Counted from the first letter of the stretch, positions 33,294-62,871 are shown. The stretch is 64,000 nt of DNA from Methanothrix sp. (GCA_963682135.1 OY821645.1:1792001-1856000); one strand, 5' to 3'. Notes: generated by a model from the sequence alone, not told the origin. Program-made: numbers and translations.

Positions 33294-33294
33294 G

Positions 33295-34494: not shown

Positions 34495-34500
34495 CTGAGG

Positions 34501-35874: not shown

Positions 35875-35908
35875 CCTTACACACTTATAATTTAAAGGAT
35901 TGCAAAAC

Positions 35909-38269: not shown

Positions 38270-38273
38270 TACC

Positions 38274-44017: not shown

Positions 44018-46441
44018 CTATGGAGCGATTTGATCCGGAACATTATCATGCACTATTCCAATATTCCCACTTACTGTACCAGCATTCTTGTAAATACCTC
44101 CGCCGCTCAGTGTAGCTAGGTTGTTGTCTATTGAACCGCCGTTCAGGATCAACGCATTGTTGTTGAAAATTCCTCCACCCCATGTTGCAGTATTCTGGCT
44201 AATTGAGCCGCTATTTATGTTCGACGTGACCTCGTTGTAAACGCCGCCGCCTGAGTTGGCTGCATTGTAGGCGACAGTTGCCCCATTTAGATTGAGTGTA
44301 GCACCGACAATATTCGCTATGCCTCCTCCAACCCTTACTGCTATATTATGGTCTATTGAGCCACCATTCAAGTTTAAAGTGCTGTGGTCTTGACAGATTC
44401 CCCCGCCATCATTTGCCGCGTTGTTATTGCTTATTGTGCCCCCTAAGAGGTCCATTGCGCCCACCCAATTGTAGACACCACCACCGGAACCTGTTGCAGC
44501 GTTGTAGCTTATGGTGCCTGCAATCATAGTTGTCTTGCCTCCTTGTTCGTTTGCAAGACCTCCTCCAAATTTAGCACGGTTATTGATTATCGAACCGTAA
44601 TTCAAGTTGACTTTTCCGAAAGTGCAAATGCCACCACCATCTTCACCTGCTGTGTTATGGTCTATCAAAGCACCGTTCATATGCAATACACCATAGTTGT
44701 CATAAATGCCACCACCAGAACCTGTCGCAGCATTGTAAGAGATCTGGAAGCCCTCGTTTAGGGTTACTGTGCCGTATTCATTTAAGATTCCGCCACCTAG
44801 GAACGCATTATTATGATCAATGGAGCCGCTGTTCAGATTCAATGTGCCGAGGTTGAAGATTCCACCACCATTTGCTTTTGCGGTGTTGCCGTTTATAGAG
44901 ACGCTATTTAGGTGCAGTATACCACGATCATTGTAGATGCCACCGCCGCCATAGTCAACATCGTTACCCGATATTGTGACACCGTTCAACGTCAGTGTGC
45001 CGGAATTCCAAATGCCTCCACCCCATTGGTCATGGCCGTTTTGCAGTGTCAGGTCAGAGAGTATCACTTCAATACTAGGTCCGAGGGCAAGCACTCGATG
45101 AACCTTATTGCCATCCACCACAGGCTTACCTTTGCCGGTGTCTACGCCCTGAAGGATTATGCTCTTGGCAATGCTCAAGCCTTCAAAATAAGTTCCGCTT
45201 AGCACCTTCACCCTATTGCCGGCGCTCGCTCCATTCACGGCGGATTGAATATCTTTGTAATCGCAAGCAATTGGTCCAACAAGGCTTGTCGGGGGCTGAT
45301 CAATTCCGATTGTGCAGATCCACAGGCTGTTATCTCCCCCGGCCACTGCCACGCGAACTCTGCCGTTTTTATCCCTCTGAGCATTGGGGTCCGATTTTAA
45401 AAATCCGCCTAAATTGTACCAATTGCCATTGGCATTATCCCATAGCCCCCTATCATTTCCTTGGACAAAGGTGTGCATGACTCCGTCGGGATCTATTGCA
45501 GGAGCCGGATTGCCGTTATTCATCAAGTCATATCCCTGCGCTATGTAACCTCCAAGTCCCTGCCATGATGCGGTATTTGTAGTAATATCCAGATCATTGC
45601 GCCACAAGGAACCATCACCGCCTCGCACAAGAGTATAGACATACTTAGTGTCGAACGGATTTATAATTGGTTTCGCATCCGATGTTATAAAACCGCCACG
45701 ATTCTGCCAGATACCATCAACATTATCCCATAGAGTGCCGTCGCTTCCTCTTGCCAGGACATGGAGCTTTCCGTCTGCATCGAAAATCAATTGTGGGTTT
45801 GATGTAATTATTCCACCCAGCGAAGACCATGCACCTGTGGTTATATCCTTAATCCACAAGGAGTCATCTCCACCTTTGACTGCGACCTTCACCTTATTGT
45901 CCGGGGATAAGGCCGCACTGGGATTAGAAGTGATTATGCCACCAAGGTTCGTCCACCCACCATCCAAGACCCTATCCAAAAGAGCACCATCGCTTCCCCT
46001 GACGAGAACATGAATTTTTCCCTGACCATCTTTGACGGCAAAAGGGTCCGAAGCTATAGATCCACCTAACGATTGCCATGTTCCATCAATATTATCCCAT
46101 AGTCCATTGTCGCCTCCTTTCACAAGGGTATGACCTCTACCCTGATTGTCCTTGATCTGAAACGCATTTGAGGCGATATAGCCTCCTGAACCACTCCATC
46201 CCCACGATCCTGAGGTGGGGAAAAAATTCGGCGACTCACTGCAGACGTTGATACTGAGATTGGAAGGGGTTTCGAATGCAATTGCATCCGCAGTGGAATT
46301 GCCTAAGGTCACCGATGATGCACCACCGCCGTCATCTAACTCACAGCAAGCCAACGACAAAAGGAGAAATCCTAACAGAATATAAATAATTATACTATGC
46401 TTGATACGAGACGATACTTTTATCAACATTTTGGCCACCAC
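44018..46441 (-). CDS. Secreted protein: 7-blade lectin-like propeller plus pectin-lyase-like beta-helix (GGGI.N repeats)
   Basis: Signal/lipobox-like N-terminus; seven GxDxxL(W) blades; IQSAVN..G; many N.A..GGGI.N repeats. Confidence 0.85.
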   Translation of the reverse strand: MVAKMLIKVSSRIKHSIIIYILLGFLLLSLACCELDDGGGASSVTLGNSTADAIAFETPSNLSINVCSESPNFFPTSGSWGWSGSGGYIASNAFQIKDNQGRGHTLVKGGDNGLWDNIDGTWQSLGGSIASDPFAVKDGQGKIHVLVRGSDGALLDRVLDGGWTNLGGIITSNPSAALSPDNKVKVAVKGGDDSLWIKDITTGAWSSLGGIITSNPQLIFDADGKLHVLARGSDGTLWDNVDGIWQNRGGFITSDAKPIINPFDTKYVYTLVRGGDGSLWRNDLDITTNTASWQGLGGYIAQGYDLMNNGNPAPAIDPDGVMHTFVQGNDRGLWDNANGNWYNLGGFLKSDPNAQRDKNGRVRVAVAGGDNSLWICTIGIDQPPTSLVGPIACDYKDIQSAVNGASAGNRVKVLSGTYFEGLSIAKSIILQGVDTGKGKPVVDGNKVHRVLALGPSIEVILSDLTLQNGHDQWGGGIWNSGTLTLNGVTISGNDVDYGGGGIYNDRGILHLNSVSINGNTAKANGGGIFNLGTLNLNSGSIDHNNAFLGGGILNEYGTVTLNEGFQISYNAATGSGGGIYDNYGVLHMNGALIDHNTAGEDGGGICTFGKVNLNYGSIINNRAKFGGGLANEQGGKTTMIAGTISYNAATGSGGGVYNWVGAMDLLGGTISNNNAANDGGGICQDHSTLNLNGGSIDHNIAVRVGGGIANIVGATLNLNGATVAYNAANSGGGVYNEVTSNINSGSISQNTATWGGGIFNNNALILNGGSIDNNLATLSGGGIYKNAGTVSGNIGIVHDNVPDQIAP

Positions 46442-46708
46442 CTCGCATAGATGTTTATTAGAAATGATATATATAGTTTATGTAAAAATTTCATAATAAG
46501 AAGTTAAAGGCGGTTAAGTTATGGAAATTGGACTCAAAATAAAGTAAAAATAATACATCAGTTAGTAAAGATCTTAACCTAAAACATTCAAGTTATTTTA
46601 GAGAATTTTGCTTTGATTTTATTATTGTACAAGGCCATATTAAAGAAGCCCTAATTGAAGTAGTCTCCCTAGATTGCAATAATGTGAATTCATGCATTTT
46701 ATTTATAG

Positions 46709-48413
46709 CCCACATCCCGCAGGTATCCCTAATTTTGTGAAACATTTTTATGCTGCCATGATTTCTTAGCCCCAAAGGGATTCGAAGGGGCCAAAATGAA
46801 ACTATCAACTTTGTCGCTTGATCATCTTGGACTAGTTGCAGCAATCTTCGATGCTTTGGGCATTTCTGAATTGATTGATGGATTGATTCCGAAGACTCGC
46901 GAATGCAAGCTGAGCCATTCTGAAATAATAAAGGCCTTGATAATCAACGGTTTAGGTTTCGTTGAGCGAAGGCTGTACATATTTCCAAGCTATTTCGAGA
47001 ATCTTGCGCTGGAACGCCTTTTTCATCCAGGAGTTATTTCAACAGATTTTAATGAAGATGCTGTTGGCAGGACTCTTGATAGAATCAATCGATACGGCTC
47101 GACCATGCTTTTCAATCAGATAGCCATGAAGTGCGTGCGGAAACTATCGATTGGCACTCAGATCTATCATGTCGATACTACAAGTTTCAGCGTCCATGGG
47201 GATTACGAAGGACCGGATTGTCTGCCTGCTATGGAAATAACTCTCGGTCATCCCAAGGACGGTCGATGGGATCTAAAACAATTCGTTATCAGCATGGTAA
47301 CCAACCAATGCGGCATCCCTCTTTTTGTCCAGGCTCATTCTGGAAATAAATCAGATAAGAAAACTGTCATCCAGACAATTCAAGCGTTCAAGTCCAACCT
47401 AGACTTTTCTGAAAAAGGTTACTTTGCCGCAGATAGCGCTTTTTTCAGTTCAGAGAATATCCGCCTCCTAGGTGACGAGACCTTATGGATTACTCATGTC
47501 CCTTCAACTGTTGGCGAAGTCAAGGATTTTCTAAAACGCGATCTTGAGATGAAGACGTGCTCAGATGATCGTTACAGCGTATTTGAGACAGATATAAACT
47601 ATGGCGGAATAGATCAAAAGTGGGTTGTGGTCGATTCCAGGGAAATGCATGCCAGCAAGACAAAGACCTTTGATAAGAGGATGGAAAAAGAGTTCACTGA
47701 AACAAGAAAATCGCTCAAAAAACTGGGAAGAGTGCTCTTCGCGTGCGAAGCCGATGCTAGAAAGGCAGCTGATCGATGGCTATTGGAGAATCCTCATTTT
47801 ATCCTTCAAAATTTGAAAATTAACGCATTCAGCAAACGCAAAGGCTCTAAAAAAGGGCGTCCGAAGAAAGATGAGGAACTTGAAAAAGGCTATCATGTTG
47901 AAGCCGAAGTCATGCTAAATAAGGAAAGCATTGAGAACGAGAGAGCGAGACTGGGCAGGTTTATCCTGGCGAGCAACGATAAAGCACTTGATGGCGAATT
48001 GATGCTAAAATACTACAAAGGCCAGAACGCTGTCGAGAAAGGCTTCCGATTCTTAAAGGACAAAAGCTTTCGGGTAGCGGAAGTCTATCTCAAGAAAGAA
48101 GAACGAATTGAAGCCTTGTCTATGATCATGGCTCTTTCCCTATTGATCTATTCGATTGCCGAATGGATGATCAGACAAAAATTGAAGGAATATAGCGAAA
48201 CCGTGTTGAATCAGCTCGGAAAGCCCACTGCTCGTCCAACTCTAAAATGGATATTCCAGAAATTCAGGAATATCAACGAGGCCATCTTTGAATTCAAGGG
48301 TGCAATTCAGCGAGAGATTATTAATTTAAATGATGAGCAAATTAAAATTATAAAGTTGCTAGGACAGGAATGCGAAAAATACTATGTTTGAAGGGTTACA
48401 TGCGGGATGTGGG
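46709..48413 (+). mobile_element. IS1634-family insertion sequence, complete
   Basis: TIRs CCCACATCCCGCAGGTATCCCT / CCCACATCCCGCATGTAACCCT (20/22); 6-bp TSD TTATAG at 46703-46708 and 48414-48419. Confidence 0.95.
46796..48391 (+). CDS. IS1634-family transposase
   Basis: LDHLGLVA, HVDTTSFSVHG, GHPKDGRWDLKQ, ADSAF and YKGQNAVEKGFRFLK. Confidence 0.95.
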   Translation: MKLSTLSLDHLGLVAAIFDALGISELIDGLIPKTRECKLSHSEIIKALIINGLGFVERRLYIFPSYFENLALERLFHPGVISTDFNEDAVGRTLDRINRYGSTMLFNQIAMKCVRKLSIGTQIYHVDTTSFSVHGDYEGPDCLPAMEITLGHPKDGRWDLKQFVISMVTNQCGIPLFVQAHSGNKSDKKTVIQTIQAFKSNLDFSEKGYFAADSAFFSSENIRLLGDETLWITHVPSTVGEVKDFLKRDLEMKTCSDDRYSVFETDINYGGIDQKWVVVDSREMHASKTKTFDKRMEKEFTETRKSLKKLGRVLFACEADARKAADRWLLENPHFILQNLKINAFSKRKGSKKGRPKKDEELEKGYHVEAEVMLNKESIENERARLGRFILASNDKALDGELMLKYYKGQNAVEKGFRFLKDKSFRVAEVYLKKEERIEALSMIMALSLLIYSIAEWMIRQKLKEYSETVLNQLGKPTARPTLKWIFQKFRNINEAIFEFKGAIQREIINLNDEQIKIIKLLGQECEKYYV

Positions 48414-48505
48414 TTATAGCAAAGCCGACGAAATATATAGATGAAATTGGTAGAATATAGTAGTATATCTATATCAAATAGTTGACTTTCGATCAGCTAA
48501 GGTCC

Positions 48506-48895
48506 TTAACTTCTCACAATTAAAATGCATCCAATCACCACGAGAGCAATTCCTGCCCACCGATAAATAGTGACCATTTCCCCCAGAAAGACAACAGCAA
48601 AGACTGCCGTAACCACATAGGCTAAACTCAATAAGGGATACATTGAACTGACATCCAGCGTAGAAAGCGCCCCTAGCCACAAGAATGCCGAGACCATGTA
48701 TAAAAATAGACCACCCATGACATAATAATTGCCGAAAATCTGCATTACTGTACTCAGATTCAATAGATCGGAGAAGTCATCGATCTGCTGCACCTGTCTC
48801 ATCCCTGCCTTCATGGAAACCTGCCCCAGAGCTCCGAAGACTACGCATATTAAAACCAGGCCGATAGCGAACATATTTGATCCATTTCTTTTCAT
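48506..48895 (-). CDS. Small EamA/SMR (ArnF-like) flippase
   Basis: GQVSMK.G; WLGALSTLDVSSMYPLLSLAYV; FLGE.V. Confidence 0.85.
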   Translation of the reverse strand: MKRNGSNMFAIGLVLICVVFGALGQVSMKAGMRQVQQIDDFSDLLNLSTVMQIFGNYYVMGGLFLYMVSAFLWLGALSTLDVSSMYPLLSLAYVVTAVFAVVFLGEMVTIYRWAGIALVVIGCILIVRS

Positions 48896-49647
48896 GATTG
48901 ACCGTCTCTAGGCTTTCTGCACACGCACATGACGCTTACACCAAACGGCAGATCAAACCATCCTAAGATGCTATTCTCTGCCCACAACAATCCCCTCAAT
49001 ATTCTATTTATCGGGGCAGGCAATTCTGCTAAATCCGTTTGCTTATTTCTCTGGGAACTGGTGGCTCTTTTCAGCATACGCATAGCTGCCACGGGCCAAA
49101 ATAGGAAAAAGTTCCAGTAGGTGGCTCTTTCAACAATAAAACCTCCTAAACCGAGAATATCACAAAGCTCCGATCGCGTATACCTTCTTTTATGATGCAC
49201 TGCCAGATCATGATTGCTCCAGAGAAACTGAAAGGCAGGAACAGTCACAATCAGGCTTCCCCCAGGCCTTAATACGCGATTTAGCTCACGAATGGCGGGG
49301 AGATCTTCTTGAATATGTTCTATAACATCTAGAGCCACTACCAGGTCAAAGAACTCGTTTTTTAAGGGCAACCTATCCACAGAACCGCAAATGAGCAAAG
49401 ATAACCCTCGAATGCGGCTGAATTCTAAAGCCTCTTTTGAGATATCCAAACCATATGCATCGCCATAATCCAGAAGATATCTCAGATTAATACCAGTTCC
49501 ACAGCCTGCATCTAAAATATTCATGGATTTGTCGGGATATTTCTTATGAATCTGGGCAACAGCCTTTAGAATCAACCTTCTGCGCCCTGAATACCACCAG
49601 TTGGTCTCCTCCAATTGATACATTTTGTCGTATTCAGAGGAGTCCAT
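48892..49647 (-). CDS. Class I SAM-dependent methyltransferase
   Basis: E.TNWWY.GRR, ILDAGCGTG, LDVIEH and VPAFQFLWSNHD..HHKRRY. Confidence 0.9.
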   Translation of the reverse strand: MDSSEYDKMYQLEETNWWYSGRRRLILKAVAQIHKKYPDKSMNILDAGCGTGINLRYLLDYGDAYGLDISKEALEFSRIRGLSLLICGSVDRLPLKNEFFDLVVALDVIEHIQEDLPAIRELNRVLRPGGSLIVTVPAFQFLWSNHDLAVHHKRRYTRSELCDILGLGGFIVERATYWNFFLFWPVAAMRMLKRATSSQRNKQTDLAELPAPINRILRGLLWAENSILGWFDLPFGVSVMCVCRKPRDGQS

Positions 49648-49666
49648 TTATTTTGCCTCCATTGAG

Positions 49667-50414
49667 TCAGCGGCCATTTCCCCGAAGGTCCCACCAGAGC
49701 CGCAAAATCTGCTGCCCCATATCATTAGCATCCTTAACAATATTGACCTTAGTGGACGCCGACTCCTTCCACTCAACGGGTATTTCTTTAATTCTATATC
49801 CTCGCCTTTGCCCCCTCACGAGGAGCTCTGTATCCCAAAACCAATGATTATCTTTAATATCATCCAATAAGCAGGTGATTTTATCCCGTTTAAATGCTTT
49901 GAAGCCGCATTGATGGTCTAAGACCTTGGAACCGAGAAGGTGCCGGACCATTCTATTATAAACCGTGCTTGCCAACAGGCGCTTTGTATTCCTTTTTGCC
50001 TTGCTCGCCGCCATCATCCTTGATCCAATTGCAATGTCGTATCCTTCCTTCGCCACGGCATTTATAATATCCGGCAAATAGGTCATATCTGTTGCTAGAT
50101 CTGCATCAATATAACAAACAACATCGCCTAAACAGGACTTGATAGCCAAATTTAGAGCTTTGCCGCGTCCCAGTCTCTGGCGAGAGCTTAAAAGATGTAT
50201 ATCGGAATTTTCGCGGGCCATATCAAGGGCAAGATCTCGGGTCCTATCATTGCTTCCATCTTCCGCGACAATTATCTCACCCGGAATGTTTGAATTGGCG
50301 AGAGTACTTTGTGTTATGAGAACCGCACGTTTTATTCTGGATTCCTCATTGTATGCAGGAATAACAACAGAGACAATATATTTCGGTGCCGTTCCAACTC
50401 ACATCCCGCTTCAT
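49667..50414 (-). pseudogene. Polyprenol-phosphate hexosyltransferase (DPG-synthase/AglD-like GT2) lacking an in-frame start
   Basis: Frame extends upstream of 50221 through VSVVIPAYNEE...EDGSND to an in-frame TGA with no ATG/GTG/TTG; the nearest ATG (50414) is 1 nt out of frame. IDADLATD, DHQCGFKAF and WFWDTELL are intact. Confidence 0.7.
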
Positions 50415-50438
50415 GCAGGCTTTTCCTTGCCGTATCGA

Positions 50439-50454
50439 TATATAAAGCTTTTTC
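50439..50454 (-). promoter_or_regulatory. BRE-TATA promoter for the GT2-methyltransferase-EamA operon
   Basis: Minus strand GAAAAAGC-TTTATATA, ~25 nt upstream of ATG 50414. Confidence 0.6.
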
Positions 50455-50534
50455 AGGGGGAGATATCGGATAATGAAAAAAATACTAGCAAGCCTGAGGA
50501 TATCTCTCCTCATGCCTGCTTTCCTAAGGTCAAC

Positions 50535-53500
50535 TCAGCCTTCTGTCGAATTTGCAGCCACCTCCACCAGCGTCACCGCCTCGACTGGGCCTTCAGTGTT
50601 TCTAGAAAATTCCCCGGCAGAGGACGAGGGTGCAGACGTAGCATACACCTTGCGCCATATTGCCGAGTCACCCCCCTGCACATAGGCATAGGTCAGGCCA
50701 TCCAGCAATGCCTGCGGCGACCCGATAATGCTTCCACCATGGCCGATCCAGAGAGCACCGGACGGATTCCAGGGATTGCCGGAAAAGACGTTCTCCCACA
50801 TTGCGCCATCATTGCCCCGAGCAAAGGCATGAACCCTGCCGGAGGTATCTGTAGAGGCAAAGGGATCGGAAGTGATGCCTCCGCCAAAGCTTATCTGGGT
50901 ACAGGTCTCAGAATTGCTCAGGCTGTTGACATTTGCCATCCAGAGTGCATTGTCCGTTCCGCGGTAGACCGCTAACAGGTTACCACTGGTGCCTGGATTT
51001 AAAGCGGCGAAAGGCGCTCCTTGAATGGAGCCGCCAAGGCCATACCAGTTGCGGACATATACTCCGGAGGTGAGAATGCCTCGGTTATCCCATAGAGCAT
51101 TGTCGCCACCAACTGCAAAGACATGCATACGGCTGTTTGAATCGAAGATCACAAATGGCCTGCTGTTTAGAGATCCGCCCAGGCCATACCAATTATATGA
51201 CGACAGATCATTGACATTAAATTCGCAGAGCCAGAGTGAATTATCGCCGCCTCTGGCGACTATCTCCATGACGTTTCCATAGGTTGGCTCCATGGCAGCG
51301 GTCGCCTGAGTGCTGAGAATTCCGCCGAGTCCCTTCCAGCCGCCTGTCCAGCTTGCCGTATCAAAGACATAATCCCAGAGCCCATTGTCTCCACCGCGAG
51401 CAACAATGTGTATCCGGCCGTTTTTGTCCCTGGCAGCATAAGGCGCTGAGGTCAGAACTCCACCAAGGCCAACCCAGGATCCGTCCACATTGTCCCAGAG
51501 AGCATTGTCCCCACCTATGACGAATAGGTGCCTTCTGCCCTGATTGTCGATTATGGCAGTGTGCTCATATTTCTTGTATCCGCCGAGGGAGGTCCAGGTC
51601 TGTGGCACAGAGGGGTTCTTTATGGAGACAGATGGATCGCCGTAAACGTTGAACACATAGTAGTTCATCAGACATGCACTGCTAGGGGGAGACATGCTCG
51701 ACTTCATCAGGTGCAGAGCATCTGCGGCAGGCTGCTGCGATACCAGTCTCTTCACATATTCATAAACCATTCCAGCATTGGTAGCGGTCATGGCGAAGCT
51801 GGTCTGGCCGGTATAGTACCACGATACCCTGGTTGCGGAGACGGTAGCAATACCGCCTTTCTTGAGGATGGCATATTGCAAGTTCCCTGAATCTTCTGGA
51901 TAGCCGTTCAAACAGGAGCACTGATAGGTGAAAGAAGGATGAGTATCGTCAAGGCTGGGTGCATAGCTGCTGAGCATGAATGAACCGTCAACACAAGAGC
52001 CATAACCCACATTGGCACTTTGGGAACTGCCATGCCCCCACCAACTGACTATACCAAAGTCGCTGCCTGCCCAACGATTGGGAACAACGCTGCCCCCTCT
52101 CAGGTCCTCCTCACTGGCAAATATCGAATCCAATGTGCATGACCCGGAAGCGCCTTGCTGGTACATTCTCCAGGTAGAGTAGCTATTGGAGGACAGATAG
52201 TTGTTCTTCATCTGTTCGCCCAGGTAAGCTCCGTCCGTGCTGGCATCAGAAAAACTCATAGGCAGAAGAGCGCTCTTCCTCCAGGCAGTGCTGCCGGACG
52301 TCTCGTAATCAATCGTCTTTTGCAGGATGCTATCTAATGCGGCATAATTTGCGCTGTAGACAGGAATTCTTCCCACATAGACCTCCGAAGAAAAGTCCAC
52401 GCCACCAGACGTTGTGAAGTCAGACCATTCGCCATAAAGGCCATCTCCATTGATGTCCCAGTTGCCGGTCAGATCGGCATAAAATGCATCTGTGGGTGCA
52501 TTCTCATAACCATCACCGGCGCCGTAGCGCGGCCAGCACATTTTCATGGGAATATCGCCTTCCCCTGACTCATAGGGAGCTGGATTTCCTATCAATAGTA
52601 CGTATTTGATGCCAAGGGATACATAGTTATTCTTCAGCCATTGCCTGATCTTCTCTGCTTTTTGGTTTGGAGATGGCCCGACCAGCCCACCAAAATCAGT
52701 CTCCGTCACTACACTGACCGTATACCCGAGAGATTGCTTGTGAGCAATAAACGCATTCAGCTTGCTGCTTGCAGATCTGATAGCATTTGTTGTAATAATG
52801 ACGTAGCGGCCTGTTGCGCTGGTCTCTGGGCCGGCAGCGATCTGTGCACCATACGAATCCTTCAATTCCTTATAGTTGATGAACATGCCATGTGCCAGGC
52901 TATCCATCACAGTATCTTTTAAAAGATTTGATTCATCTGCACTGATTGCAGGCAGCAGGTCGTAGGAAATCTTCACAGTTACATTCTCTATAAGGATTAA
53001 AGTCTTCTGCACGGGATTGTACTTGAAGGGTATGAACTGCACCGGGACGAATATCCATTTTCTCATCTGCGAGTAGGGCAATAGCTGAACATTATTCTGC
53101 GGATATGCTGAGTCGTTCAGATAGACCGCACTTTTTATGATCTCAATTGGCTCATCTGAAGCAGCGAAATCATATGTCCCGTTGTCTGATAAGACCCTGG
53201 GCTCTGGCGCGGGCCGGATATTGTAGGTTCCATCGAGAAGCGTTGTCTCTTCAGAGATTGCCTCCAATTTGATGCTGGAAGGATCAACATTCGGCGGGAG
53301 AAGAACATCCACTTTGCCACTGGGCAGCATTGGCTCTCCCGTAATATATTTAATCGAAAAGTCATTCATATCAATGCCGTCATAACCATCAGAATCCTTT
53401 GTAATAGTGAACCTATTTGATTTGAGTTGAACCATAATTTCGTTTGCGGCCCCTCCAACTACTTTCCCAATTTTAATATCATCTGCGGGAATAGGCTGCA

Positions 53501-54070: not shown

Positions 54071-55597
54071 ATGAGAAGCATAAATAGTAAAGTATTATCA
54101 ATATGTTTTATATATCTATTTATAATTGATTCCGCCTGTGCCATTGGAATGAGCATTTCATCAGGAGATGAAAGAGGCAACGTGGCAATTTTCGATAGCT
54201 ATAAACTATCGACCGATACCGCTCTGAAATCGGAATCGACACTTGATGGACATAATATCTATCAAGATCGCCTTCTCTATGGAGACGGCAATAATTATCT
54301 CGTCCATTGCGTTGAAGGAAATGGATATAATTCGAAAAACGTTGTTGAGAGTTCTGGACCACTGCGCATTTCCACATCATCGGCTGCCTCACCCCAGTCT
54401 GCATCGATATCCCAAGCAGTGATGGGCACAGGCAATATTTTTGCAGAATTAGAGGGAACTCAAGGGACCAATTTTGTGGAGCAGAAGACAACTGTGATAG
54501 ATGGAGGCCTGTCATTATCCCAGAGTCTCGCAGCCGGCAGCCTCCTTTCAGCAAGCCAGGAAACAAAGATGAGCGGTACATCTTGTTACCTGGAAGCCAA
54601 TTCGCAATCCCGTGAAAATGCAATGTTGGTAAATGGGATCTTTTACGAAGTAGGGGACATAGCGGCGGATCTGACTGCAGCATCCCAAGGAAAAGCCTGG
54701 ACAATGGGAGATATATCCGCATACGGGGATAGTTGCCTGGATAAGGATACATTGAGATTGATAGGCTCGAAGAACATGGGTCTTTCCTTCGATTCCAGCT
54801 ATATTAAAGACTGCGAAAATGTCGATTCAGCCCCTATATTCAAGGGATCTGTGCAGACCAATGCAGTTAACATGGATCGTGACGTGTTTGATAGCGCCTC
54901 CCAAGCCAACCAGGCCCAAGCATCCACCGAGTCTGCATTGCAGTCTCAGACCTACGGTGGCCGGGTGGGCAACTTTTGGGGATGGCTCTCCCTTGGCAAT
55001 AGCTACGATGGAGGAATCTATGGACCTGCCAGGAGATGGAACCAGGCAAACCCAAGCATTCAATTGTATCTTCTTACTGACGCCAACTACAATGCAGAGG
55101 GCCTGAACACTAACAATGTCTGCGCGGCGATTCAAACAGCTGCGAACATATGGGACGGCGCAACTTACCAGAGACTCTTCGCAAGCACAGTATTGCCCAG
55201 CAGCATCGTTTCCCGCGATGTACAAGACGGGAAATCCGTTCATTCCTGGGAAAATATCGGAGCCTATAATGGGGTTTATTCCCCAGGTCACGCTCACACC
55301 TGGTACACCACCAGCAGTCAAGAGGATGGCTTTTACCAGATAACCGACTCCGATGTTGATTACAATACCTACTATAGCTGGAATACGAATGGCATTAGCG
55401 GTGGAACAAATTACGATATAGAGACCATTGCCGTCCACGAGCTTGGCCATACCCTGGGCCTGGCGGACCTCTATAACAAGGATAACGCCCCCCTCTACAA
55501 GGCACAGGTTCAGCAGATAATGAACCGCCAGTACAATCATCCTTTGTGGCTGGGAAATGGAGATCGCCAGGCCATTTGGGCTATGTATGGACGGTGA
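54071..55597 (+). CDS. Secreted metzincin (matrixin/M10-like) metalloprotease with beta-rich N-terminal domain
   Basis: Signal peptide; YDIETIAVHELGHTLGLADLY; Met-turn QIMN; LGNGD. Confidence 0.85.
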   Translation: MRSINSKVLSICFIYLFIIDSACAIGMSISSGDERGNVAIFDSYKLSTDTALKSESTLDGHNIYQDRLLYGDGNNYLVHCVEGNGYNSKNVVESSGPLRISTSSAASPQSASISQAVMGTGNIFAELEGTQGTNFVEQKTTVIDGGLSLSQSLAAGSLLSASQETKMSGTSCYLEANSQSRENAMLVNGIFYEVGDIAADLTAASQGKAWTMGDISAYGDSCLDKDTLRLIGSKNMGLSFDSSYIKDCENVDSAPIFKGSVQTNAVNMDRDVFDSASQANQAQASTESALQSQTYGGRVGNFWGWLSLGNSYDGGIYGPARRWNQANPSIQLYLLTDANYNAEGLNTNNVCAAIQTAANIWDGATYQRLFASTVLPSSIVSRDVQDGKSVHSWENIGAYNGVYSPGHAHTWYTTSSQEDGFYQITDSDVDYNTYYSWNTNGISGGTNYDIETIAVHELGHTLGLADLYNKDNAPLYKAQVQQIMNRQYNHPLWLGNGDRQAIWAMYGR

Positions 55598-55602
55598 GAC
55601 AA

Positions 55603-57627
55603 ATGCAAACATCAATATATAAAGTAGTTATCGCACTTATTTTCATTCTTAACATAATGAGCCTGCCGGCATTCTCTGTAACCGTATCCATGAGCTCAAA
55701 TAATGCAAATGCCGAAGTCTCCCTAATCCAAAGATATGATATCGATAAGTCAACCGATCTTAGAGTCCGGACGGGCCTTGGAGAAGGCACCATCATGCAG
55801 ACTCAGTGGGCATGCGGTCAAGGCAATAACAAAATCAGCCAATCTTTGAGCAACGGGTATCAAAGTGCGTACAGCGCAATCTATTCAGACGGCTACTTCG
55901 GCCTGAACTCCAACACTCTGGCCACAGGAACGAACTTGGACTTGAGAGCAAACTTAGGTGCATCTGGTGAAACCAGAAGTCTGCTTTCCGGATCGACAGG
56001 ATCTTCCTTTGCTACCCAGGAGGCCTGGACATTAGGCGGCAGCCAGACCTCAAATCAAGCCCTAATTGTACAAGGTGACATAGTTAGAGCCGATCAGAGT
56101 ACCGGTATCATGGGCGCCCTTGGATATTCATTGGGCCGGTCTGGGTTAAAAGATAAAGAGGTGGAGGTTACAGGAGGACTTAACGGCCAGGGCATAGTGT
56201 TCAGCCAGATGACCGCCGTTGCCTCAGATGAGGCCAGCGCGTCAGGAGAGATCAGAAGCATCAGCCAGGACAGCAAGTCCTACTCAACTATAAAAGCCAC
56301 TTCTGCCCAAGAGGAGACCTATTCCTATCTCTCCTCTCGCGATGGTCTGCACTCTACTCTTACAGCCAACGCCAATGAACACGCAGGAGTACAGCAAAAT
56401 ATAGCGGCGGTTAGTGGCATCATGGCTTATGCCAGTGCAAGAGAGGGCACCGATTTCCTCAGTTTTGCGGAAGAAGGGAGCATCGCATCCGGCAGCATAA
56501 TCGCTTCGACAGACGGGCGTCCCTGCATTAATAAAGAGCTCACAGGAGACACACAGAGCACAGTACTGCAAGCCGCACCTCTCGCTGGAGCTGAACTCTT
56601 TGCCCTGCCTCTGCCCAGCTCAACCAGACCGTCATCCATAATTGATAACAGTAATATCGAACACATATTTGTTCGAGGAGGAGATGGCTCACTTTGGGAC
56701 AACAAGGGCGGAGACTGGTACTCATTGGGAGGATATTTCAACCTCAATCCATCGGCAGTCAAGGATGGCAATGGCAACATCCATATTTTTGTGCAGGGCG
56801 GCGATCTCGGCCTCTGGGACAGAAAGCTCACAAGCACTATGGGCGGGGATTGGACCGGCCTCGGAGGACAAATAACATCATCTCCCAGTGCCGTAATAGA
56901 GCCTGCATATCCCTCTTGGATTGCAATCGCGGTGAAGGGAACCGATAATTCTCTCTGGATACGAAACCTCTATACCACGACAATGACATCCGGCTCTTGG
57001 AGCAACATGGGCGGATACATAAAGGGAGATCCATTCTTGGTTGCTTCAAATGATGGTTCCAACTATGTGTATGCCCTTGCAAGGGGAGGCGATGATGGAT
57101 TATGGATCAACAAAGCGCAATCCGGACCAACGACCGCTAGCTCAGTAGAGTGGTATGGATTCGGCAACAGCCTCGCCTCAGACCTGAGCGGCGCGATTGA
57201 GCCGGTCTCAAACGGCTTTCTTAAGGTGGCCGGTCGGGGTTCGGACAACGGCCTCTGGATGTGTGACATCGATTTAGTTGCCTCCCCCAGCGGTGAAATT
57301 GAATATGCTTGGAGCTCATTAGGCGGAATCATAACCTCAAACCCTTATGTTGCATTCGATACTAGCGGCAATATCCACACCTTCGCTCGCGGCAGTGACA
57401 ATGGACTCTGGGATAACAAGGGTATCTGGGGAAGCGGCGTGTATGAGCATAATTGGTATTCATTGGGAGGTGTAATTGCCTCAGATCCAAAGCCCTTAAT
57501 GAATCAGAATACGGATAAGATAGATATAGCTGTCCAGGGAGGAGACGGAGCACTATGGATTAACAGGATGCAACCGAATAACCCAGCTAATTCCAATTGG
57601 TATGGTCTCGGTGGTTGGATCACCTAA
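55603..57627 (+). CDS. Secreted protein: beta-rich N-terminal domain plus 7-blade lectin-like propeller
   Basis: Signal peptide from MQTSIY; N-domain aligns by eye with that of 54071; seven GxDxxLW blades. Confidence 0.82.
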   Translation: MQTSIYKVVIALIFILNIMSLPAFSVTVSMSSNNANAEVSLIQRYDIDKSTDLRVRTGLGEGTIMQTQWACGQGNNKISQSLSNGYQSAYSAIYSDGYFGLNSNTLATGTNLDLRANLGASGETRSLLSGSTGSSFATQEAWTLGGSQTSNQALIVQGDIVRADQSTGIMGALGYSLGRSGLKDKEVEVTGGLNGQGIVFSQMTAVASDEASASGEIRSISQDSKSYSTIKATSAQEETYSYLSSRDGLHSTLTANANEHAGVQQNIAAVSGIMAYASAREGTDFLSFAEEGSIASGSIIASTDGRPCINKELTGDTQSTVLQAAPLAGAELFALPLPSSTRPSSIIDNSNIEHIFVRGGDGSLWDNKGGDWYSLGGYFNLNPSAVKDGNGNIHIFVQGGDLGLWDRKLTSTMGGDWTGLGGQITSSPSAVIEPAYPSWIAIAVKGTDNSLWIRNLYTTTMTSGSWSNMGGYIKGDPFLVASNDGSNYVYALARGGDDGLWINKAQSGPTTASSVEWYGFGNSLASDLSGAIEPVSNGFLKVAGRGSDNGLWMCDIDLVASPSGEIEYAWSSLGGIITSNPYVAFDTSGNIHTFARGSDNGLWDNKGIWGSGVYEHNWYSLGGVIASDPKPLMNQNTDKIDIAVQGGDGALWINRMQPNNPANSNWYGLGGWIT

Positions 57628-57702
57628 TCATGAGTCGAATGATGCTCGAAAAATAAAATAGATTGATTATTGAAATCATCGTCATTGATAATTTCAATAA
57701 TC

Positions 57703-60700
57703 TTAATTCAATAATGTTGCATCAAGTTTTGTTATCGAACCTCCCTGGCTCTGCCATGCACTCCATGCAGTTCCATCCCAATTTCTCTGCCAAAGGGCAC
57801 CATCAGTCCCAATTGCATAGACTCCGACATTGCTTCCAGATGATACTGCATCAAGGTCTGTTATCGCGCCACCCAGGCTCTGCCAATCACTCCAGGCAAC
57901 ACCATTCCAATTTCGGTACCATAGGCCACCATCTCCACCGCGGGCGAAAACATAGACATTGCCACCAGATGATGTCGAATCAAGGGCAGTTATCGCGCCA
58001 CCCAGGCTCTGCCAATCACTCCAGGCAACACCATTCCAATTTCGGTACCACACGGCATCATCTCCACCACGGGCAAAGACATAGACATTGCCACCTGATG
58101 ATGTGGCATCAAGATCTGTTATCGCGCCACCCAGGCTCTGCCAATCGGCCCAGTTAACGCCATTCCAATTTCGGTACCATAAGGCATTATCACCACCAAT
58201 TCCGAACGCATAAACACTGCCTGCAGTAGATGTGGCATCAAGGTTTGTTATAATGCCTCCCAGGCTCTGCCAATCGGCCCAGTTAACGCCATTCCAATTT
58301 CGGTACCATAAGGCATTATCACCACCAATTCCGAACGCATAAACACTGCCCGCAGTAGATGTGGATTCAAGTTTTGTTATGATGCCTCCCAGGCTCTGCC
58401 AATCGGCCCAGTTAACGCCATTCCAATTTCGGTACCATAAGGCATTATCTCCACCAATTCCAAACGCATAAACACTGCCTGCAGTAGATGTGGCATCAAG
58501 GTCTGTTATGAAGCCACCCAGGCTCTGCCAAGCACCCCACGCACCTAGATTGAGCTGTTTGATCTGTAGGTCGTTACCGGTGCCTATTGCAGATATGGTC
58601 AATACTTCGGACAGCATCGCAGTGTTCGACCATCCCGAATATGCGGTCTTCTGGGGGAATCCCACTGCAGGAGCCGGATACACTGTGGTATCGCCCACCA
58701 CGTTAATAGCTCGCACCCTGTAGTAGTATGGTGTACCGGGAACTAGTGTGGTATCGGTGTATGTTACCACATTAGGCCCAACTGTGAATTCAGTCAGATC
58801 CACAGTGAATGCGGCATCCTTTGCTCTTTGAATGAAGAATCCGGTTTCGCTGATGGAATTGTCCACCCAGTTCAGAGTAGCAACCGGTGGTACTGTTCCG
58901 GATAATGCGACTACCAGATTAGAAGGAGCCCTTGGCGGCACCACAAAGGCCACAGCATGCATCATATCCATCTCTTCATGGGAGAGAAGATGGCAATGCA
59001 TCATGTACTCCCATCCAAAGTTGACGATATGATTGATCACCGTAACTGGTTCACCACTCGGGTCCTGGAATCCTAGCGGCCCTCCTTTGAGTTCAGCACC
59101 CTCCGGCATAGTCGGGTCTATCAACCGCTCACTGTTGGGAACTTCGAAAGGCTGCGTGGGCGCTATGGGCCTCAAAGCGATGATGGTGTCTTGCAGCGGG
59201 TTAACCCGGAATGTCTCCTTCCATCCCAGCTCATTGAGATCTGGCACACGAAGGGCATTGTCCCAGGCCACCCGGTTGATCAATTGGGCATTGAACAGGT
59301 GCACGTGTATGGTGTGCGTGTCCACTCCGTTATGGGTGATCTTCCAGATCTGGGTTCCATCTCCCAGCGATCCGATCTGAGTTCCATAGACCGAACCCTT
59401 GACAATCTCCAATGGTGGAGATGCAAAGGGATAGAGAAGCAGATTCTGATTGCCGGCTCCAGTGAATGGCACCTCCAAACCTAACAGGCCACTCATTCGT
59501 CCGTAGTCGGTCTCGAAGGCTTCACCCATCTCATCCTGGATGGCCTTCGGCTCGAAGGGAATAGTCACCGTCGAGCCGGCAAGTGTCTGGAATGTCTTGC
59601 TGTTCTCAAAAATCCTCGCATAAGGATCTGCTGCCAGATCCGTCCTGTCGTAGGCTGAGTTGTATTCCGCCTGCGGCACAATGATCTCGTCCTGGGATGC
59701 CTCGAAGACGCCCTTCTTATTGTTCACCGTGTCCTTGGCAAATACCGCCTGCAATTTGGTCAGATCGTAGGATTGCACGGGGGCGGCTGCTACCCGGATC
59801 TGCATGATGGTGCGCGTGTTGGGACCATAGCCTGCCTGGGTCGTAGGTGCGCCACCGGTATCAGTCTGATCCGGATGGTTGGTGTAGTAGTCATAGCGCG
59901 GATCGATTGCCGGGAAGGGTGCAGGAGCATCGTTGTACAATATGAGTGTTCTTCCGGCATATGCGGAGAAGTCTACTATGACATCCGCCCGTTCCGCCGG
60001 ACCCAGCAAGAGAGTTCCCTGGTTAACATTCCCGAAATCGAAGTTTGTTTGATCCCAGTTCCAGTTGACCGGCTGATTGGGCAGCACCACCGGTGCCGGC
60101 AAGAAGCCGCCTTCCGTTCCTATTTGAATGAAAGATGGGCCCGCTTTGGCTGGATCAGGCACACCGCCATCCCTTCCGTCTGTCGGCCAGTTTGCCGGCA
60201 AGCCTGCACAATTTGATGCAGGAATCATGCCAACCTCGGTCGGATTAGTGTAGACGGTTGCGGTTGCTGCAGCACCGCCTCCGACAGTATCCGTAATCGT
60301 AACCCCAGGCGCAGTATAACCGCTGCCCACAGTTAGCAGTTCGATGCCGGTAATTACGCCATTCACTACTGTCGCTTTAGCAGTTGCACCTTTTCCATTT
60401 CCGATAGTATCAGTTATGGTGACCTTTGGATCTACGTAATTGCTGCCCCCGCTCGTGACGGTTATACTGCTGATTATATTATTGGTCTCATAAATCTGCA
60501 GGTTGAAGAACCGGTCGTCGGCTGCATTCAGAATACGGAACCGATAAGCTTTGGGCTCTACCTCCAGGTAGGGATAGGCCATGCCGTTGACCACCGGAGT
60601 GTCTACGAAAGACTCCATGGCCATAGAGTTATGGGGCACGCCCGGAATCATTGGCGGCTCATTGGGGCCGGCATAGGGATTGGGGACTGGTCCGTGCGCA

Positions 60701-62871
60701 ATATCCGTTGTGGGCGGCCAGAACCATGGTCCATAATGCCAGCGGCCGAATGCATTCATGCCTCCGATATCCCAGGGATTTTGGTTTGTCATATAGACAT
60801 GAGGCATCCAGAGGTCGCCGGTATTGGCATTCAGAATTTTTCCCGTATCTGGATCTCTGGCAGCTGTCCCCCAGTTCCAGGTGGGGTCCTGGGCTGCAAT
60901 GGTCGTTGCATCGACAAAGGTCTTGTCCTGAATGACCAGGGGAATTCCTACATCAGGAAGGACTTTAACCGGCGGATTGAGGTTGATTCCGGCAAGGTTG
61001 GTGCCGTCTATCATATCCTTCTCAACCTGGTCGGTTATCAAGTACCCGGCTGCTTCTCCAGCATAGACATTGATCCGAGTGATACCATAGGAATGATCAT
61101 GGTAAAACATCAGCCTGGCGCTCTGCTGGTTGTTATAGTAGAAGGTCATCGATCCGTCGCCTGGATCAGGCATGTCCGGAACATTGCGCATGCTGACGCC
61201 TTTGGGGTAGGAGGTGGTCTCTCCGGCAGGAGTTATCCACTGATGAGGCGTTCCATCGCTAATCCATGGAACATAGCCGCCGTGCAGATGTACTGTGGCA
61301 CGGTTCTGGGTATAAAGCTCCATGATGTGGCCTATGGTTACGACCGCAGGTGCTGGATTTGTCTTGAGCTTGATCTGGAATTTATTCGCAGTCAAACCCG
61401 TGCCCAACACACGGTACTCTCCATTGTAAGCATCCGGTACAAAGCCGTGTAACATAATCAATTGCCCCTGAGCAAGGTTATGAGGCATCATTGTCATGAC
61501 CTCGACTACAGCTCCGCCTACTGGCGTCACCGTATTGGCCATAATCATGTCGGGACCCATTCCAGCACCCATAACCGTTGTGTCCACTGGCAGGAATAGG
61601 TCGCCGCCCTCGCCCTTGGCAAGCAGGTTAAAGAATTTGATGCGCACCGGACGGTCCCTCTGGGAGACTATGATGGGACCCATGTACTGAGGATTTGTCA
61701 CGGCAATAGCCGGAGTGCTGTCGGGTTTCAGGATAGGATTGTTGTTCGCATCCAGCAACGCAACGCCAGCTCCAGGAACTACTGGGGTAGCCAGCTGCAC
61801 ATAACCCCTCAGCCTGGTCGCAGGAAGATTGGTATGCATCTTCTGGCTGTACTCAACCAATGCAATCTCATAATAATCACACCCAAAGAGCGTGACTGCT
61901 GTGATGACGCCACCTACCACCGTTGCCTTTCCAATGGCATGTGTCGCCGCCCCACCACCTCTGAATGTAATGGTCGGATTGGCAGAATATCCGCTCCCAC
62001 CACTGTCGATGGTGACACTAGAAACTGTATCACCGGTCAAATGGGCAGTGGCTGCAGCACCTGTGCCGGTCCCATCAGTGATCTCAATTGTGGGAGCAGA
62101 TGTGTAGCCTTTTCCACCAGGTGGATAAGTTGCCTGATCTGGAGTGGCCTGAATAAGATTCGGTAGCGTATCAACGAACTTTCTAATTCCACCGGTTAGA
62201 GCGCCACCTAATATTGCTGTAGCTGTTGCGCCAGTGCCCGGACCGGCCGCATCAATAATGGTAACTAGAGGTGCAGTGTAACCGCTGCCTGATGAACCGG
62301 GATTTATGTTGATGCTTGTAATAACACCACCAATAGCCGTTGCGGTAGCCGCAGCTCCTGAGCCAGTACCGTAGACGTCTGAAATTACAGCAATGGGACT
62401 GACATAACCGCTGCCTCCATTTGTCAGAGTGATACTGGCAATAGAACCAGTAGGCATGGGGCTGTTGGCATAGTTAGGATAGGGGCCGAAGTAGTGAGGA
62501 ATGCCGCCTGGGTCAAACGCGGGTGTTATCGTAGGCGCAACGCCTGGGGCAGCCTCACGGGCCAGGGCCATAGCCTCTTCACGAGCTGCTTTGTTGCGTT
62601 GTGCCGCAGCTTTCCTCTCCGCAGGCAATTGCATCCTCATTTTGAGAGATTGCCTTGCATCGAAGGTAACATTTTCATCTAAATTCGGGCTATCCGATGA
62701 ATTGAGAGCAATGCTGTTTAATTCAATGCTCTCATTGGCAGCACTGCCATTTAAAGACAATATGGCAAGCAGCATTCCTGCCAGAAATAATATTGCAGCA
62801 GCTTCAAGAAAAGAGAACCTCTCTTTGAATTTGCATTTGGCCGATTTATTACGAAAGTCCATATCAATCAT
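57703..62871 (-). CDS. Large secreted multicopper oxidase with inserted Ig-like repeats, Fn3 domain and 7-blade lectin-like propeller
   Basis: Cu motifs VHLHGG, FYHDH, HTIHVHL and HCHLLSHEEMDMM; Fn3 (APSNL...W.DNS..ETGF...YYYRVRA); seven WQS(L/Q)GG repeats. Confidence 0.9.
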   Translation of the reverse strand: MIDMDFRNKSAKCKFKERFSFLEAAAILFLAGMLLAILSLNGSAANESIELNSIALNSSDSPNLDENVTFDARQSLKMRMQLPAERKAAAQRNKAAREEAMALAREAAPGVAPTITPAFDPGGIPHYFGPYPNYANSPMPTGSIASITLTNGGSGYVSPIAVISDVYGTGSGAAATATAIGGVITSININPGSSGSGYTAPLVTIIDAAGPGTGATATAILGGALTGGIRKFVDTLPNLIQATPDQATYPPGGKGYTSAPTIEITDGTGTGAAATAHLTGDTVSSVTIDSGGSGYSANPTITFRGGGAATHAIGKATVVGGVITAVTLFGCDYYEIALVEYSQKMHTNLPATRLRGYVQLATPVVPGAGVALLDANNNPILKPDSTPAIAVTNPQYMGPIIVSQRDRPVRIKFFNLLAKGEGGDLFLPVDTTVMGAGMGPDMIMANTVTPVGGAVVEVMTMMPHNLAQGQLIMLHGFVPDAYNGEYRVLGTGLTANKFQIKLKTNPAPAVVTIGHIMELYTQNRATVHLHGGYVPWISDGTPHQWITPAGETTSYPKGVSMRNVPDMPDPGDGSMTFYYNNQQSARLMFYHDHSYGITRINVYAGEAAGYLITDQVEKDMIDGTNLAGINLNPPVKVLPDVGIPLVIQDKTFVDATTIAAQDPTWNWGTAARDPDTGKILNANTGDLWMPHVYMTNQNPWDIGGMNAFGRWHYGPWFWPPTTDIAHGPVPNPYAGPNEPPMIPGVPHNSMAMESFVDTPVVNGMAYPYLEVEPKAYRFRILNAADDRFFNLQIYETNNIISSITVTSGGSNYVDPKVTITDTIGNGKGATAKATVVNGVITGIELLTVGSGYTAPGVTITDTVGGGAAATATVYTNPTEVGMIPASNCAGLPANWPTDGRDGGVPDPAKAGPSFIQIGTEGGFLPAPVVLPNQPVNWNWDQTNFDFGNVNQGTLLLGPAERADVIVDFSAYAGRTLILYNDAPAPFPAIDPRYDYYTNHPDQTDTGGAPTTQAGYGPNTRTIMQIRVAAAPVQSYDLTKLQAVFAKDTVNNKKGVFEASQDEIIVPQAEYNSAYDRTDLAADPYARIFENSKTFQTLAGSTVTIPFEPKAIQDEMGEAFETDYGRMSGLLGLEVPFTGAGNQNLLLYPFASPPLEIVKGSVYGTQIGSLGDGTQIWKITHNGVDTHTIHVHLFNAQLINRVAWDNALRVPDLNELGWKETFRVNPLQDTIIALRPIAPTQPFEVPNSERLIDPTMPEGAELKGGPLGFQDPSGEPVTVINHIVNFGWEYMMHCHLLSHEEMDMMHAVAFVVPPRAPSNLVVALSGTVPPVATLNWVDNSISETGFFIQRAKDAAFTVDLTEFTVGPNVVTYTDTTLVPGTPYYYRVRAINVVGDTTVYPAPAVGFPQKTAYSGWSNTAMLSEVLTISAIGTGNDLQIKQLNLGAWGAWQSLGGFITDLDATSTAGSVYAFGIGGDNALWYRNWNGVNWADWQSLGGIITKLESTSTAGSVYAFGIGGDNALWYRNWNGVNWADWQSLGGIITNLDATSTAGSVYAFGIGGDNALWYRNWNGVNWADWQSLGGAITDLDATSSGGNVYVFARGGDDAVWYRNWNGVAWSDWQSLGGAITALDSTSSGGNVYVFARGGDGGLWYRNWNGVAWSDWQSLGGAITDLDAVSSGSNVGVYAIGTDGALWQRNWDGTAWSAWQSQGGSITKLDATLLN
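57715..58600 (-). repeat. Intragenic tandem repeat, ~7 units of 129 bp (43 aa)
   Basis: CAGGCTCTGCCAATC recurs with 129-bp spacing (e.g. 58261, 58390). Confidence 0.93.

Follow-up and report, generated by a model that had tools for sequence, protein, structure and literature searches.

Lectin-like PLL propellers on unrelated secreted proteins of Methanothrix and the exchange of enzyme tails between strains

We analysed a 64,000-nucleotide (nt) stretch of Methanothrix sp. DNA (GCA_963682135.1 OY821645.1:1792001-1856000; hereafter the window, with positions counted from its first letter), in which four secreted and otherwise unrelated proteins encoded between 44018 and 62871 each carry a seven-bladed β-propeller related to the Photorhabdus lectins PLL and PHL. 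The β-helix protein (P0001; 44018-46441, minus strand; 807 amino acids, aa) has an N-terminal hydrophobic segment followed by the propeller (~45320-46198) and a GGGI-repeat, β-helix-like region, for which Pfam and NCBIfam returned weak matches to Chlam_PMP and NosD and nothing stronger. The C25 cysteine peptidase (P0002; 50535-53714, minus strand; 1059 aa) consists of a propeptide (PF08126, E 1.2e-11), a catalytic domain covering profile positions 1-373 of 374 of Peptidase_C25 (PF01364, E 1.3e-33) and a C-terminal propeller (~50655-51596). Its catalytic region had no phmmer match among PDB sequences at E <= 0.001, and a sortase-like role, suggested by a match to PorU (E 4.3e-6) that lay far below the model cut-off, was set aside as speculation. 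A third protein (P0003, the 55603 protein; 55603-57627, plus strand; 674 aa) combines a signal peptide, an all-β meander domain of ~300 aa (55663-56607) and a C-terminal propeller (56653-57624); the open frame extends over 55546-57627 on the plus strand (693 aa), with the ATG at 55603 as the likely start, and the corresponding database cluster also has 674 aa. The multicopper oxidase (P0004; 57703-62871, minus strand; 1722 aa) is made up of oxidase and fn3 domains (Pfam Cu-oxidase_2 and fn3; PhsA-like in NCBIfam), with four His-rich copper motifs, and a C-terminal propeller of bacterial subtype (57706-58599). In the β-helix protein and the peptidase, a Cys follows the N-terminal hydrophobic segment (..LSLACC.. 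and ..FCASC..), which could be read as a lipobox.

All four propellers follow the pattern W-x-x-L-G-G ... G-x-D-x-x-L-W, repeated seven times. The 55603 protein has seven GxDxxLW and seven WxxLGG motifs, as do the peptidase, in which the W of one WxxLGG is lost, and the β-helix protein, in which one GxDxxLW-type motif has L for W (..LL); in the oxidase, all seven WxxLGG motifs are present, and of the GxDxxLW copies six are good and the remaining one is degenerate (GNDLQIK). The last WxxLGG stretch of the 55603 protein and of the oxidase lies at the extreme C-terminus, where it would form the terminal strand that closes the ring. These counts agree with an initial annotation of the DNA, which had read seven blades in each of the four proteins and placed the propellers within ~25 nt of our coordinates.

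In phmmer searches against PDB sequences, the top of the listing was occupied exclusively by PLL, PLL2-5 and PHL, all lectins from Photorhabdus, the best match being PLL for the β-helix protein (E 1.7e-45), PLL2 for the peptidase (E 3.6e-56) and PHL for both the 55603 protein (E 5e-47) and the oxidase (E 5.4e-55). An AlphaFold2 (AF2) model of the whole 55603 protein, made from an alignment of 27 homologues (pLDDT 88.9, pTM 0.82), superposed on PLL (5c9o_A) with a Z-score of 38.2 and a root-mean-square deviation (rmsd) of 2.0 Å over 318 residues in an aligner independent of Foldseek. The best 20 Foldseek rows for this model all belonged to the PLL family (E 4.8e-21 to 1e-18, TMt 0.81-0.87), and the row titles included complexes with L-rhamnose, 3-O-methyl-D-glucose and an O-methylated disaccharide. 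Tectonin appeared neither among the Pfam matches nor among the Foldseek and VIA matches listed, and the seven blades together with the PLL matches favour the UniLectin class PropLec7A over the six-bladed tectonin/PropLec6B class. Pfam recognised the propeller weakly as DUF346 (PF03984; best E 1.9e-5), a family equated with the class 'PLL-like lectin (PropLec7A)' in PMC7778903; no NCBIfam model matched it, and the precomputed annotation of all 67/67 database homologues was PF26607, a newer Pfam family. According to a table in PMC11186620, PropLec7A occurs in Archaea, and its ligands are Gal, Glc, L-Rha and L-Fuc. The domain family is accordingly known, and the initial annotation, which had called PLL/PHL homology and suggested Foldseek comparison with PLL, PHL and tectonin, was right.

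The fucose site of PHL is described as lying between blades and comprising Thr194, the backbone of Val172 and a hydrophobic pocket of Trp199 and Trp214 for the C6 methyl group, and its galactose site as a separate one with Arg-x-Glu, Gln and further Trp residues (PMC5584973). L-fucose and O-methylated sugars have been assigned to the hydrophobic sites of PLL-family lectins (PMC6943638, PMC12203525). By mapping the PHL residues through a HMMER alignment to 5mxe, we located Thr194 at the x of G-x-D, Trp199 in ..LW and Trp214 at the W of the next blade's WxxLGG. The Trp pair was intact in 25 of the 28 inter-blade sites (7/7 in the 55603 protein and 6/7 in each of the β-helix protein, the peptidase and the oxidase). 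As pairwise identity among the four propellers is only 34-45%, this retention argues for selection on the pockets, which indeed look selected for, with a sugar specificity that is not readable from the sequence.

Globally, the 3.04-Mb single-contig genome (G000) encodes eight propeller proteins, half of them in the window and the others (848, 1891, 794 and 816 aa) outside it, with at least five different partner architectures and with the propeller in N-terminal, central or C-terminal position. A hydropathy scan found one N-terminal hydrophobic segment and no C-terminal transmembrane (TM) segment in all eight, and NCBIfam detected no PGF-CTERM signal in any of them; the genome does encode archaeosortase A and at least one PGF-CTERM protein. 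The initial observation of a propeller on unrelated secreted proteins without a C-terminal TM or PGF-CTERM anchor can thus be extended from four to eight proteins. Related propeller loci came almost all from Methanothrix and Methanotrichaceae. In a tree of 62 propellers (the eight of the genome and 54 of 79 loci, 25 being left out as partial or near-duplicate), seven of the eight, including three of the window's four, grouped in a clade made up of Methanotrichaceae alone (26 rows, SH-aLRT 100). The oxidase propeller was placed among bacterial sequences on a long branch. The description of 'one tag' on four proteins is therefore correct in that all four carry a PLL propeller, but not strictly so, because that of the oxidase is of bacterial type. 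Within the Methanotrichaceae clade, the propeller of a C1 peptidase nests among those of C25 peptidases, indicating domain shuffling. The oxidase blades are also nearly identical at the DNA level (57827-58543; 129-bp period, 5.6 copies, 87% matches), which suggests recent intragenic conversion or duplication; in another Methanothrix genome (locus L011), an orthologous oxidase-fn3-propeller gene has less uniform blades and adjoins a 55603-like gene.

Searching the family with the C25 catalytic region alone, we found close orthologues (51-80% identity) at 14 places in 13 genomes, and their tails differed. Within genus g1, G000 and G033 had a PLL propeller as tail, G042 a ~95-aa repeat in six copies, G080 FG-GAP repeats, G039 Fascin/FRG1/DUF7910 β-trefoil repeats, and G067 PKD with one ~95-aa repeat. 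In seven genomes of genus g8, no tail was seen (open frames of 700-804 aa, one of them cut by a contig end; G046 was checked by Pfam). Crucially, the tail type of the peptidase was matched by a neighbouring homologue of a window enzyme in 3/3 non-PLL genomes with enough context. The neighbour in G042 was an M10 protease with ~95-aa repeats (29% identity over 516 aa to the M10 protease of the window, E 1e-48), that in G080 a β-meander protein with FG-GAP-like repeats (E 2e-14 to the 55603 protein), and that in G039 an SdrD_B/C1-peptidase-like protein with β-trefoil repeats (41% identity to the PLL-tailed L014, E 1e-85). FG-GAP is listed as PropLec7B in the table of PMC11186620 and the β-trefoil tail of G039 gave a weak RicinB_lectin_2 match, so that at least two of the three replacement tail types appear lectin-like. 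The C25 gene was flanked by glycan-synthesis genes in 5/5 same-genus genomes examined (G000, G033, G042, G080 and G039); at the one tail-less g8 locus examined, there were no flanking glycan genes. Since the tails differ between strains and match within a genome, the conserved unit is a secreted enzyme kit, encoded next to glycan genes that vary, and the lectin-like tail is its variable part.

In our preferred reading, to which we assign a probability of about 0.5, exchangeable lectin tails (a head in the case of the β-helix protein) would address a fixed set of enzymes to a strain-specific glycan, probably the cell's own. A shared strain-specific ligand is suggested because the shared tail changes by strain and not by enzyme, and the glycan of the cell's own envelope is the simplest candidate for it. 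In the pockets between blades, the Trp pair would cradle a small hydrophobic sugar group (an O-methyl group or, on fucose or rhamnose, the C6 methyl), and up to seven low-affinity sites per domain could give avid binding to a repetitive glycan. The Methanothrix lineage would have fitted the PLL tail to C25 and C1 peptidases, an M10 partner, the multicopper oxidase and β-helix proteins, and sister strains would have fitted the same enzymes with other lectin-like tails, the tail serving as a strain-specific address. Its most likely addressee would be the glycan of the cell's own sheath or envelope, which could hold the enzymes in place without a covalent or membrane anchor. Methanothrix lives on acetate, and its secreted peptidases are therefore unlikely to serve nutrition. 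Rhamnose is a 6-deoxy sugar, the kind that a Trp pocket of this type accommodates, and the genome has one RmlC-family match; the sheath of M. concilii has been described in a review as a glycoprotein with its glycan linked through rhamnose (PMC2952790). The earlier proposal that the propeller is a non-covalent anchor on the cell's own methylated glycan survives in generalised form, carried by the matched strain-specific tails and by the position of C25 beside glycan genes, whereas its tie to methylation and to a single tag is not supported. We consider it possible, though only tentatively, that the enzymes form a more complete glycan-lectin zip code: an envelope-enzyme kit (C25, C1, M10 with its β-meander partner, multicopper oxidase and β-helix proteins) would be held on the sheath by lectin tails, the whole kit would swap tails (PLL, FG-GAP, β-trefoil or ~95-aa repeats) when the glycan island changes, the PLL propeller of this strain would recognise a sheath-glycoprotein sugar of the 6-deoxy or O-methyl kind, and the kit would be the missing sheath-remodelling machinery.

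Glycan genes lie close to the tagged proteins. Directly downstream of the C25 gene is a co-directional triad on the minus strand (48506-50221), comprising an N-terminally short, Dol-P-hexose-transferase-like glycosyltransferase (GT) of family GT2 (49667-50221), an S-adenosylmethionine (SAM) methyltransferase (48892-49647) and a small ArnE/F-like EamA protein (48506-48895). The same order follows the C25-PLL gene in G033, with identities of 63% for EamA, 36% for GT2 and 34% for the methyltransferase. The GT2 protein has 184 aa, compared with 237 aa in G033, covers Pfam profile positions 51-164 and is preceded by a 313-bp gap (49667-50534); its gene may be truncated or frameshifted. Elsewhere in the window, an ABC-transporter cluster on the plus strand (32502-39437) encodes Wzm, a Wzt with a Wzt_C domain (E 1.5e-29; best PDB match full-length WzmWzt 8dku, E 6.9e-67), a 457-aa methyltransferase adjoining wzt, a double GT4 and a GT4. 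Its wzm-wzt layout recalls bacterial capped O-antigen pathways, and its Wzt shares the C-terminal carbohydrate-binding domain with the E. coli O8/O9a type; a Wzt_C domain next to a methyltransferase, as in O8/O9a, we take to suggest a capped glycan. The equivalent Wzt of G033 is without Wzt_C. A WbdD identity of the 457-aa methyltransferase gained no support, its PDB matches being generic methyltransferases with no WbdD among them. A Wzx/Wzy-type cluster (5112-13788) encodes UppP, a GT4-family protein (WecA/MraY-like), Wzz, a flippase, a methyltransferase (9486-10523), Wzy_C, GT2 and GT1. The island of three methyltransferases adjacent to the tagged proteins was hence read correctly at the outset, with SAM methyltransferases at 9486, 34501 and 48892 all among glycan genes.

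Transposase or integrase genes were found at 3967-4956, 14504-15268 and 46796-48391 (rve, a Mutator fragment and DDE_Tnp_1); the last, a DDE transposase (DUF4277 and DDE_Tnp_1) on the plus strand, separates the β-helix gene from the EamA, methyltransferase and GT2 genes. Together with a GC content that falls to 0.32-0.37 at 10001-14000 inside the glycan island, these three genes suggest that the region is mobile or was recently exchanged. Four other large proteins of the glycan region (16952-20281, 22747-25950, 39658-41847 and 41-1174) are a 1109-aa and a 729-aa open reading frame (ORF) without family match, a 1067-aa S8 subtilase and an FG-GAP protein, none of which has a PLL propeller.

Several observations weigh against the cell's own glycan as the address of the tails. 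The position of Thr194 is Gly in 18/28 sites, Thr or Ser in 7/28 and Asn in 3/28, the polar Arg-x-Glu galactose site is lost (the strand reads K/R/N-I-H or S/N-V-Y), and in 3/4 window propellers there is no Trp at +3 after ..LW, the galactose-site stacking position; with Thr mostly Gly and the polar site lost, the propellers may have another sugar specificity or bind weakly. It is also conceivable that the N-terminal hydrophobic segments act as membrane or lipid anchors, in which case a lectin anchor would be unnecessary. The four PLL genes outside the window (4/8) sit among housekeeping genes, and of 23 propeller loci from Methanotrichaceae (74 ORFs in flanks of up to 3 kb; two loci had none), 21 had no glycan gene within 3 kb; propeller genes in these flanks adjoin other propeller genes, the M10 gene or the oxidase. 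Tail matching was seen between adjacent genes, so that local duplication or gene conversion could yield matched tails without selection for a shared ligand, and C25 may owe its place beside glycan genes to inherited synteny, which may then count as one event. Across the 81 genomes of the family Methanotrichaceae that we compared, the propeller occurs in only 17, and is therefore not part of core sheath biology. Finally, among 55 ORFs scanned, bacterial stand-alone propellers of ~270-370 aa occurred in Photorhabdus, Bdellovibrio, Streptomyces and Sporosarcina, and fusions joined the domain to M10 with PG_binding_1 (four cases), S8 (two), GH5, GH6, GH27, M23, astacin, NAGPA, an Rv2525c-like domain and a protein kinase; such fusions to many hydrolases would fit ordinary targeting to a substrate or signal.

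The initial annotation had gone further in coupling the propeller to the island, and one alternative follows it: the propeller would bind O-methylated sugars made by the three-methyltransferase island, tag and island forming one dedicated display system. PLL-family lectins do bind O-methylated saccharides at their hydrophobic sites (PMC6943638, PMC12203525; PDB titles), the window has three putative methyltransferases among its glycan genes and a Wzt_C-bearing Wzt adjoining one of them, G000 and G033 share the GT2-methyltransferase-ArnE/F-like triad behind the C25-PLL gene, and in G011 an orthologue of the 48892 methyltransferase lies ~2 kb from a PLL gene. In the co-occurrence tests, however, no specific coupling gained support. 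PLL (17/81 genomes) and Wzt_C (21/81) overlapped in 5 genomes, compared with 4.4 expected if they were independent, and 3/6 genomes with multiple PLL copies (G033, G075 and G025) were without Wzt_C. Orthologues of the 48892 methyltransferase were present in 6/81 genomes, two of which have PLL, adjacent in both, and four of which do not; a glycan or methyltransferase gene was found in only 2/23 propeller flanks. Methyltransferases also stand beside C25 genes with tails other than PLL, namely FkbM in G042 and, in G080, a methyltransferase fused to a GT, and the 457-aa methyltransferase had no WbdD match. We consequently regard this coupling as improbable.

Our main rival to an own-surface address is that the tails face outward and bind foreign or matrix glycans, as adhesins or by targeting in the manner of carbohydrate-binding modules (CBMs) to extracellular polymeric substances, particles or partner cells of anaerobic granules. 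In bacterial relatives, the domain is joined to cellulases, an α-galactosidase, proteases and other hydrolases in the way CBMs are, the patchy accessory distribution (17/81) suits niche adaptation, and the β-meander domain of the 55603 protein, pll4, pll6 and the M10 protease might itself be an attachment part. Characterised PLL lectins bind glycans of other organisms (PMC5584973, PMC6943638, PMC12203525), Methanothrix clusters in granules are described as embedded in lectin-stainable glycoconjugates, with partner bacteria attached to the sheath (PMC9128505, PMC10470525), and an adhesin role has been proposed for sheath proteins that bear Ig-like and carbohydrate-binding caps (PMC11576556, section 9). 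What speaks against an outward role is that none of the eight tagged proteins was recognised as a secreted glycoside hydrolase, and that several unrelated enzymes share a tail within one genome beside the cell's own variable glycan genes, for which a self ligand is simpler. An acetate specialist also has no obvious use for digesting foreign polymers, and on balance we think this explanation unlikely, though a serious competitor. A propeller that no longer binds sugar, acting instead as a protein-protein scaffold or as a stabilising or maturation domain for large secreted proteins, would account for the mostly Gly key position, the lost polar site and the blade linkers of the Methanotrichaceae clade, which are shorter than those of PHL, and β-propellers are common protein-binding platforms. 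It sits badly with 25/28 conserved Trp pairs at the low identity of these propellers and with lectin-like character in at least two of three replacement tail types, and we hold it to be very improbable.

Reading the propellers as an address to the cell's own glycan invites comparison with S-layer homology (SLH) domains, choline-binding repeats, LysM and CWB2, which are non-covalent surface-anchoring modules of bacteria. Common to both is one repeated module on many unrelated secreted proteins without a covalent or C-terminal membrane anchor and, as predicted here, a polymer of the own envelope as ligand. Unlike those modules, with which it shares no homology, the PLL module is accessory (17/81) and is swapped for other tails in sister strains; to our knowledge, neither SLH nor choline-binding systems typically show replacement on such a scale. 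The propellers resemble CBMs, including the bacterial DUF346/PLL fusions, as lectin-type domains appended to catalytic domains, but their partners in Methanothrix are peptidases, an oxidase and β-helix proteins in an organism that does not feed on polymers, and many enzymes have one tail in common, its type depending on the strain and not on the enzyme. With the Photorhabdus lectins, they share sequence (E 1e-45 to 1e-56), fold (Z 38.2), seven W-motif blades and the two-Trp pocket. Whereas the Photorhabdus PLL lectins are stand-alone soluble proteins of ~370 aa, dimeric or tetrameric, whose targets are glycans of a host or symbiont, the Methanothrix propellers are modules inside archaeal proteins of 674-1891 aa; all 8/8 genome proteins and 23/23 Methanotrichaceae ORFs were at least 573 aa long and had other domains. 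They further differ from PHL in the mostly Gly fucose-site Thr, the absent polar galactose site, the shorter blade linkers and their separate Methanotrichaceae clade. Archaeal sheath (SH) proteins, from the same group of organisms, have variable outward accessory domains, some of them carbohydrate-binding, on a conserved β-rich core (PMC11576556); the β-meander domain of the 55603 protein is without a confident structural match, the PDB contains no SH structure, and propellers have 0 occurrences in the text of that paper.

In the literature, with subscription journals outside its scope, we found neither PLL-type propellers described on enzymes from archaea nor tail swapping described for Methanothrix, although supplementary tables of PMC11576556 may list some of the proteins; the word 'Archaea' had 0 occurrences in the PLL-lectin papers checked. 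The lectin family itself is known, and what is new here is its modular and strain-variable role. How sheathed methanogens, which are without a wall polymer of the bacterial kind, retain enzymes at their surface and insert, cut and cross-link sheath hoops are the questions that this work addresses, and section 9 of PMC11576556 states that it was not possible to identify assembly proteins. With variable glycan genes next to them, the putatively lectin-addressed peptidases and oxidase offer concrete, testable candidates for such work. If our reading is true, the PLL family would reach beyond soluble bacterial lectins to a targeting domain that archaea use as a module, and the diversity of archaeal surface glycans could be read in a new manner, through strain-specific tail swapping. 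As Methanothrix filaments form the backbone of anaerobic granules, surface lectins bear on digester aggregation, and the propellers may serve as reagents for 6-deoxy or methylated sugars.

Adjacent to the 55603 gene, the window encodes a secreted matrixin-like (M10) metalloprotease (54071-55597, plus strand; 508 aa; Peptidase_M10, E 1.8e-5), the N-terminal part of which is homologous to the β-meander domain of the 55603 protein (hhalign probability 97.3, E 2.2e-11). This all-β domain of ~300 aa has 19 antiparallel strands in the AF2 models (pLDDT 84-89) and is common to the 55603 protein, two other PLL proteins (pll4 and pll6) and a 510-aa ORF, with the M10 N-terminal part as a distant member (window 55663-56607 and 54071-55597; G000:C1:2519127-2520038, 672386-673360 and 2227780-2228424). 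Foldseek returned nothing for it at E <= 0.001, the best VIA matches were porin-like barrels (Z 8.7, rmsd 6.8 Å) in a range called unreliable, and a protein atlas search gave no usable match. The M10 and β-meander/PLL genes form a conserved pair with overlapping ends in every genome examined (window 54071-57627; L093:180-3358; L094:14893-18497; flanks of L011, L015, L020, L021 and L028), and in four bacterial relatives M10, PLL propeller and PG_binding_1 are fused in one protein.

At the locus of pll4 (L088:2845-11104, corresponding to G000:C1:2511845-2520104), genes for archaeosortase A, phosphatidylserine decarboxylase and a CDP-alcohol phosphatidyltransferase lie ~5 kb from the PLL gene. 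Between the archaeosortase A region and pll4 is a gene whose product, 634 aa long, has a DUF4785_3rd-like domain; repeats of this kind make up the C25 and M10 tails of G042. Two PLL proteins from outside the window (L088:8558-11104, minus strand, and L089:7267-12942, plus strand) end in similar stretches of ~60 aa (..PSP.EL.WYQGWGVY...TG.FN..TQVTGN..), which may be another shared terminal module.

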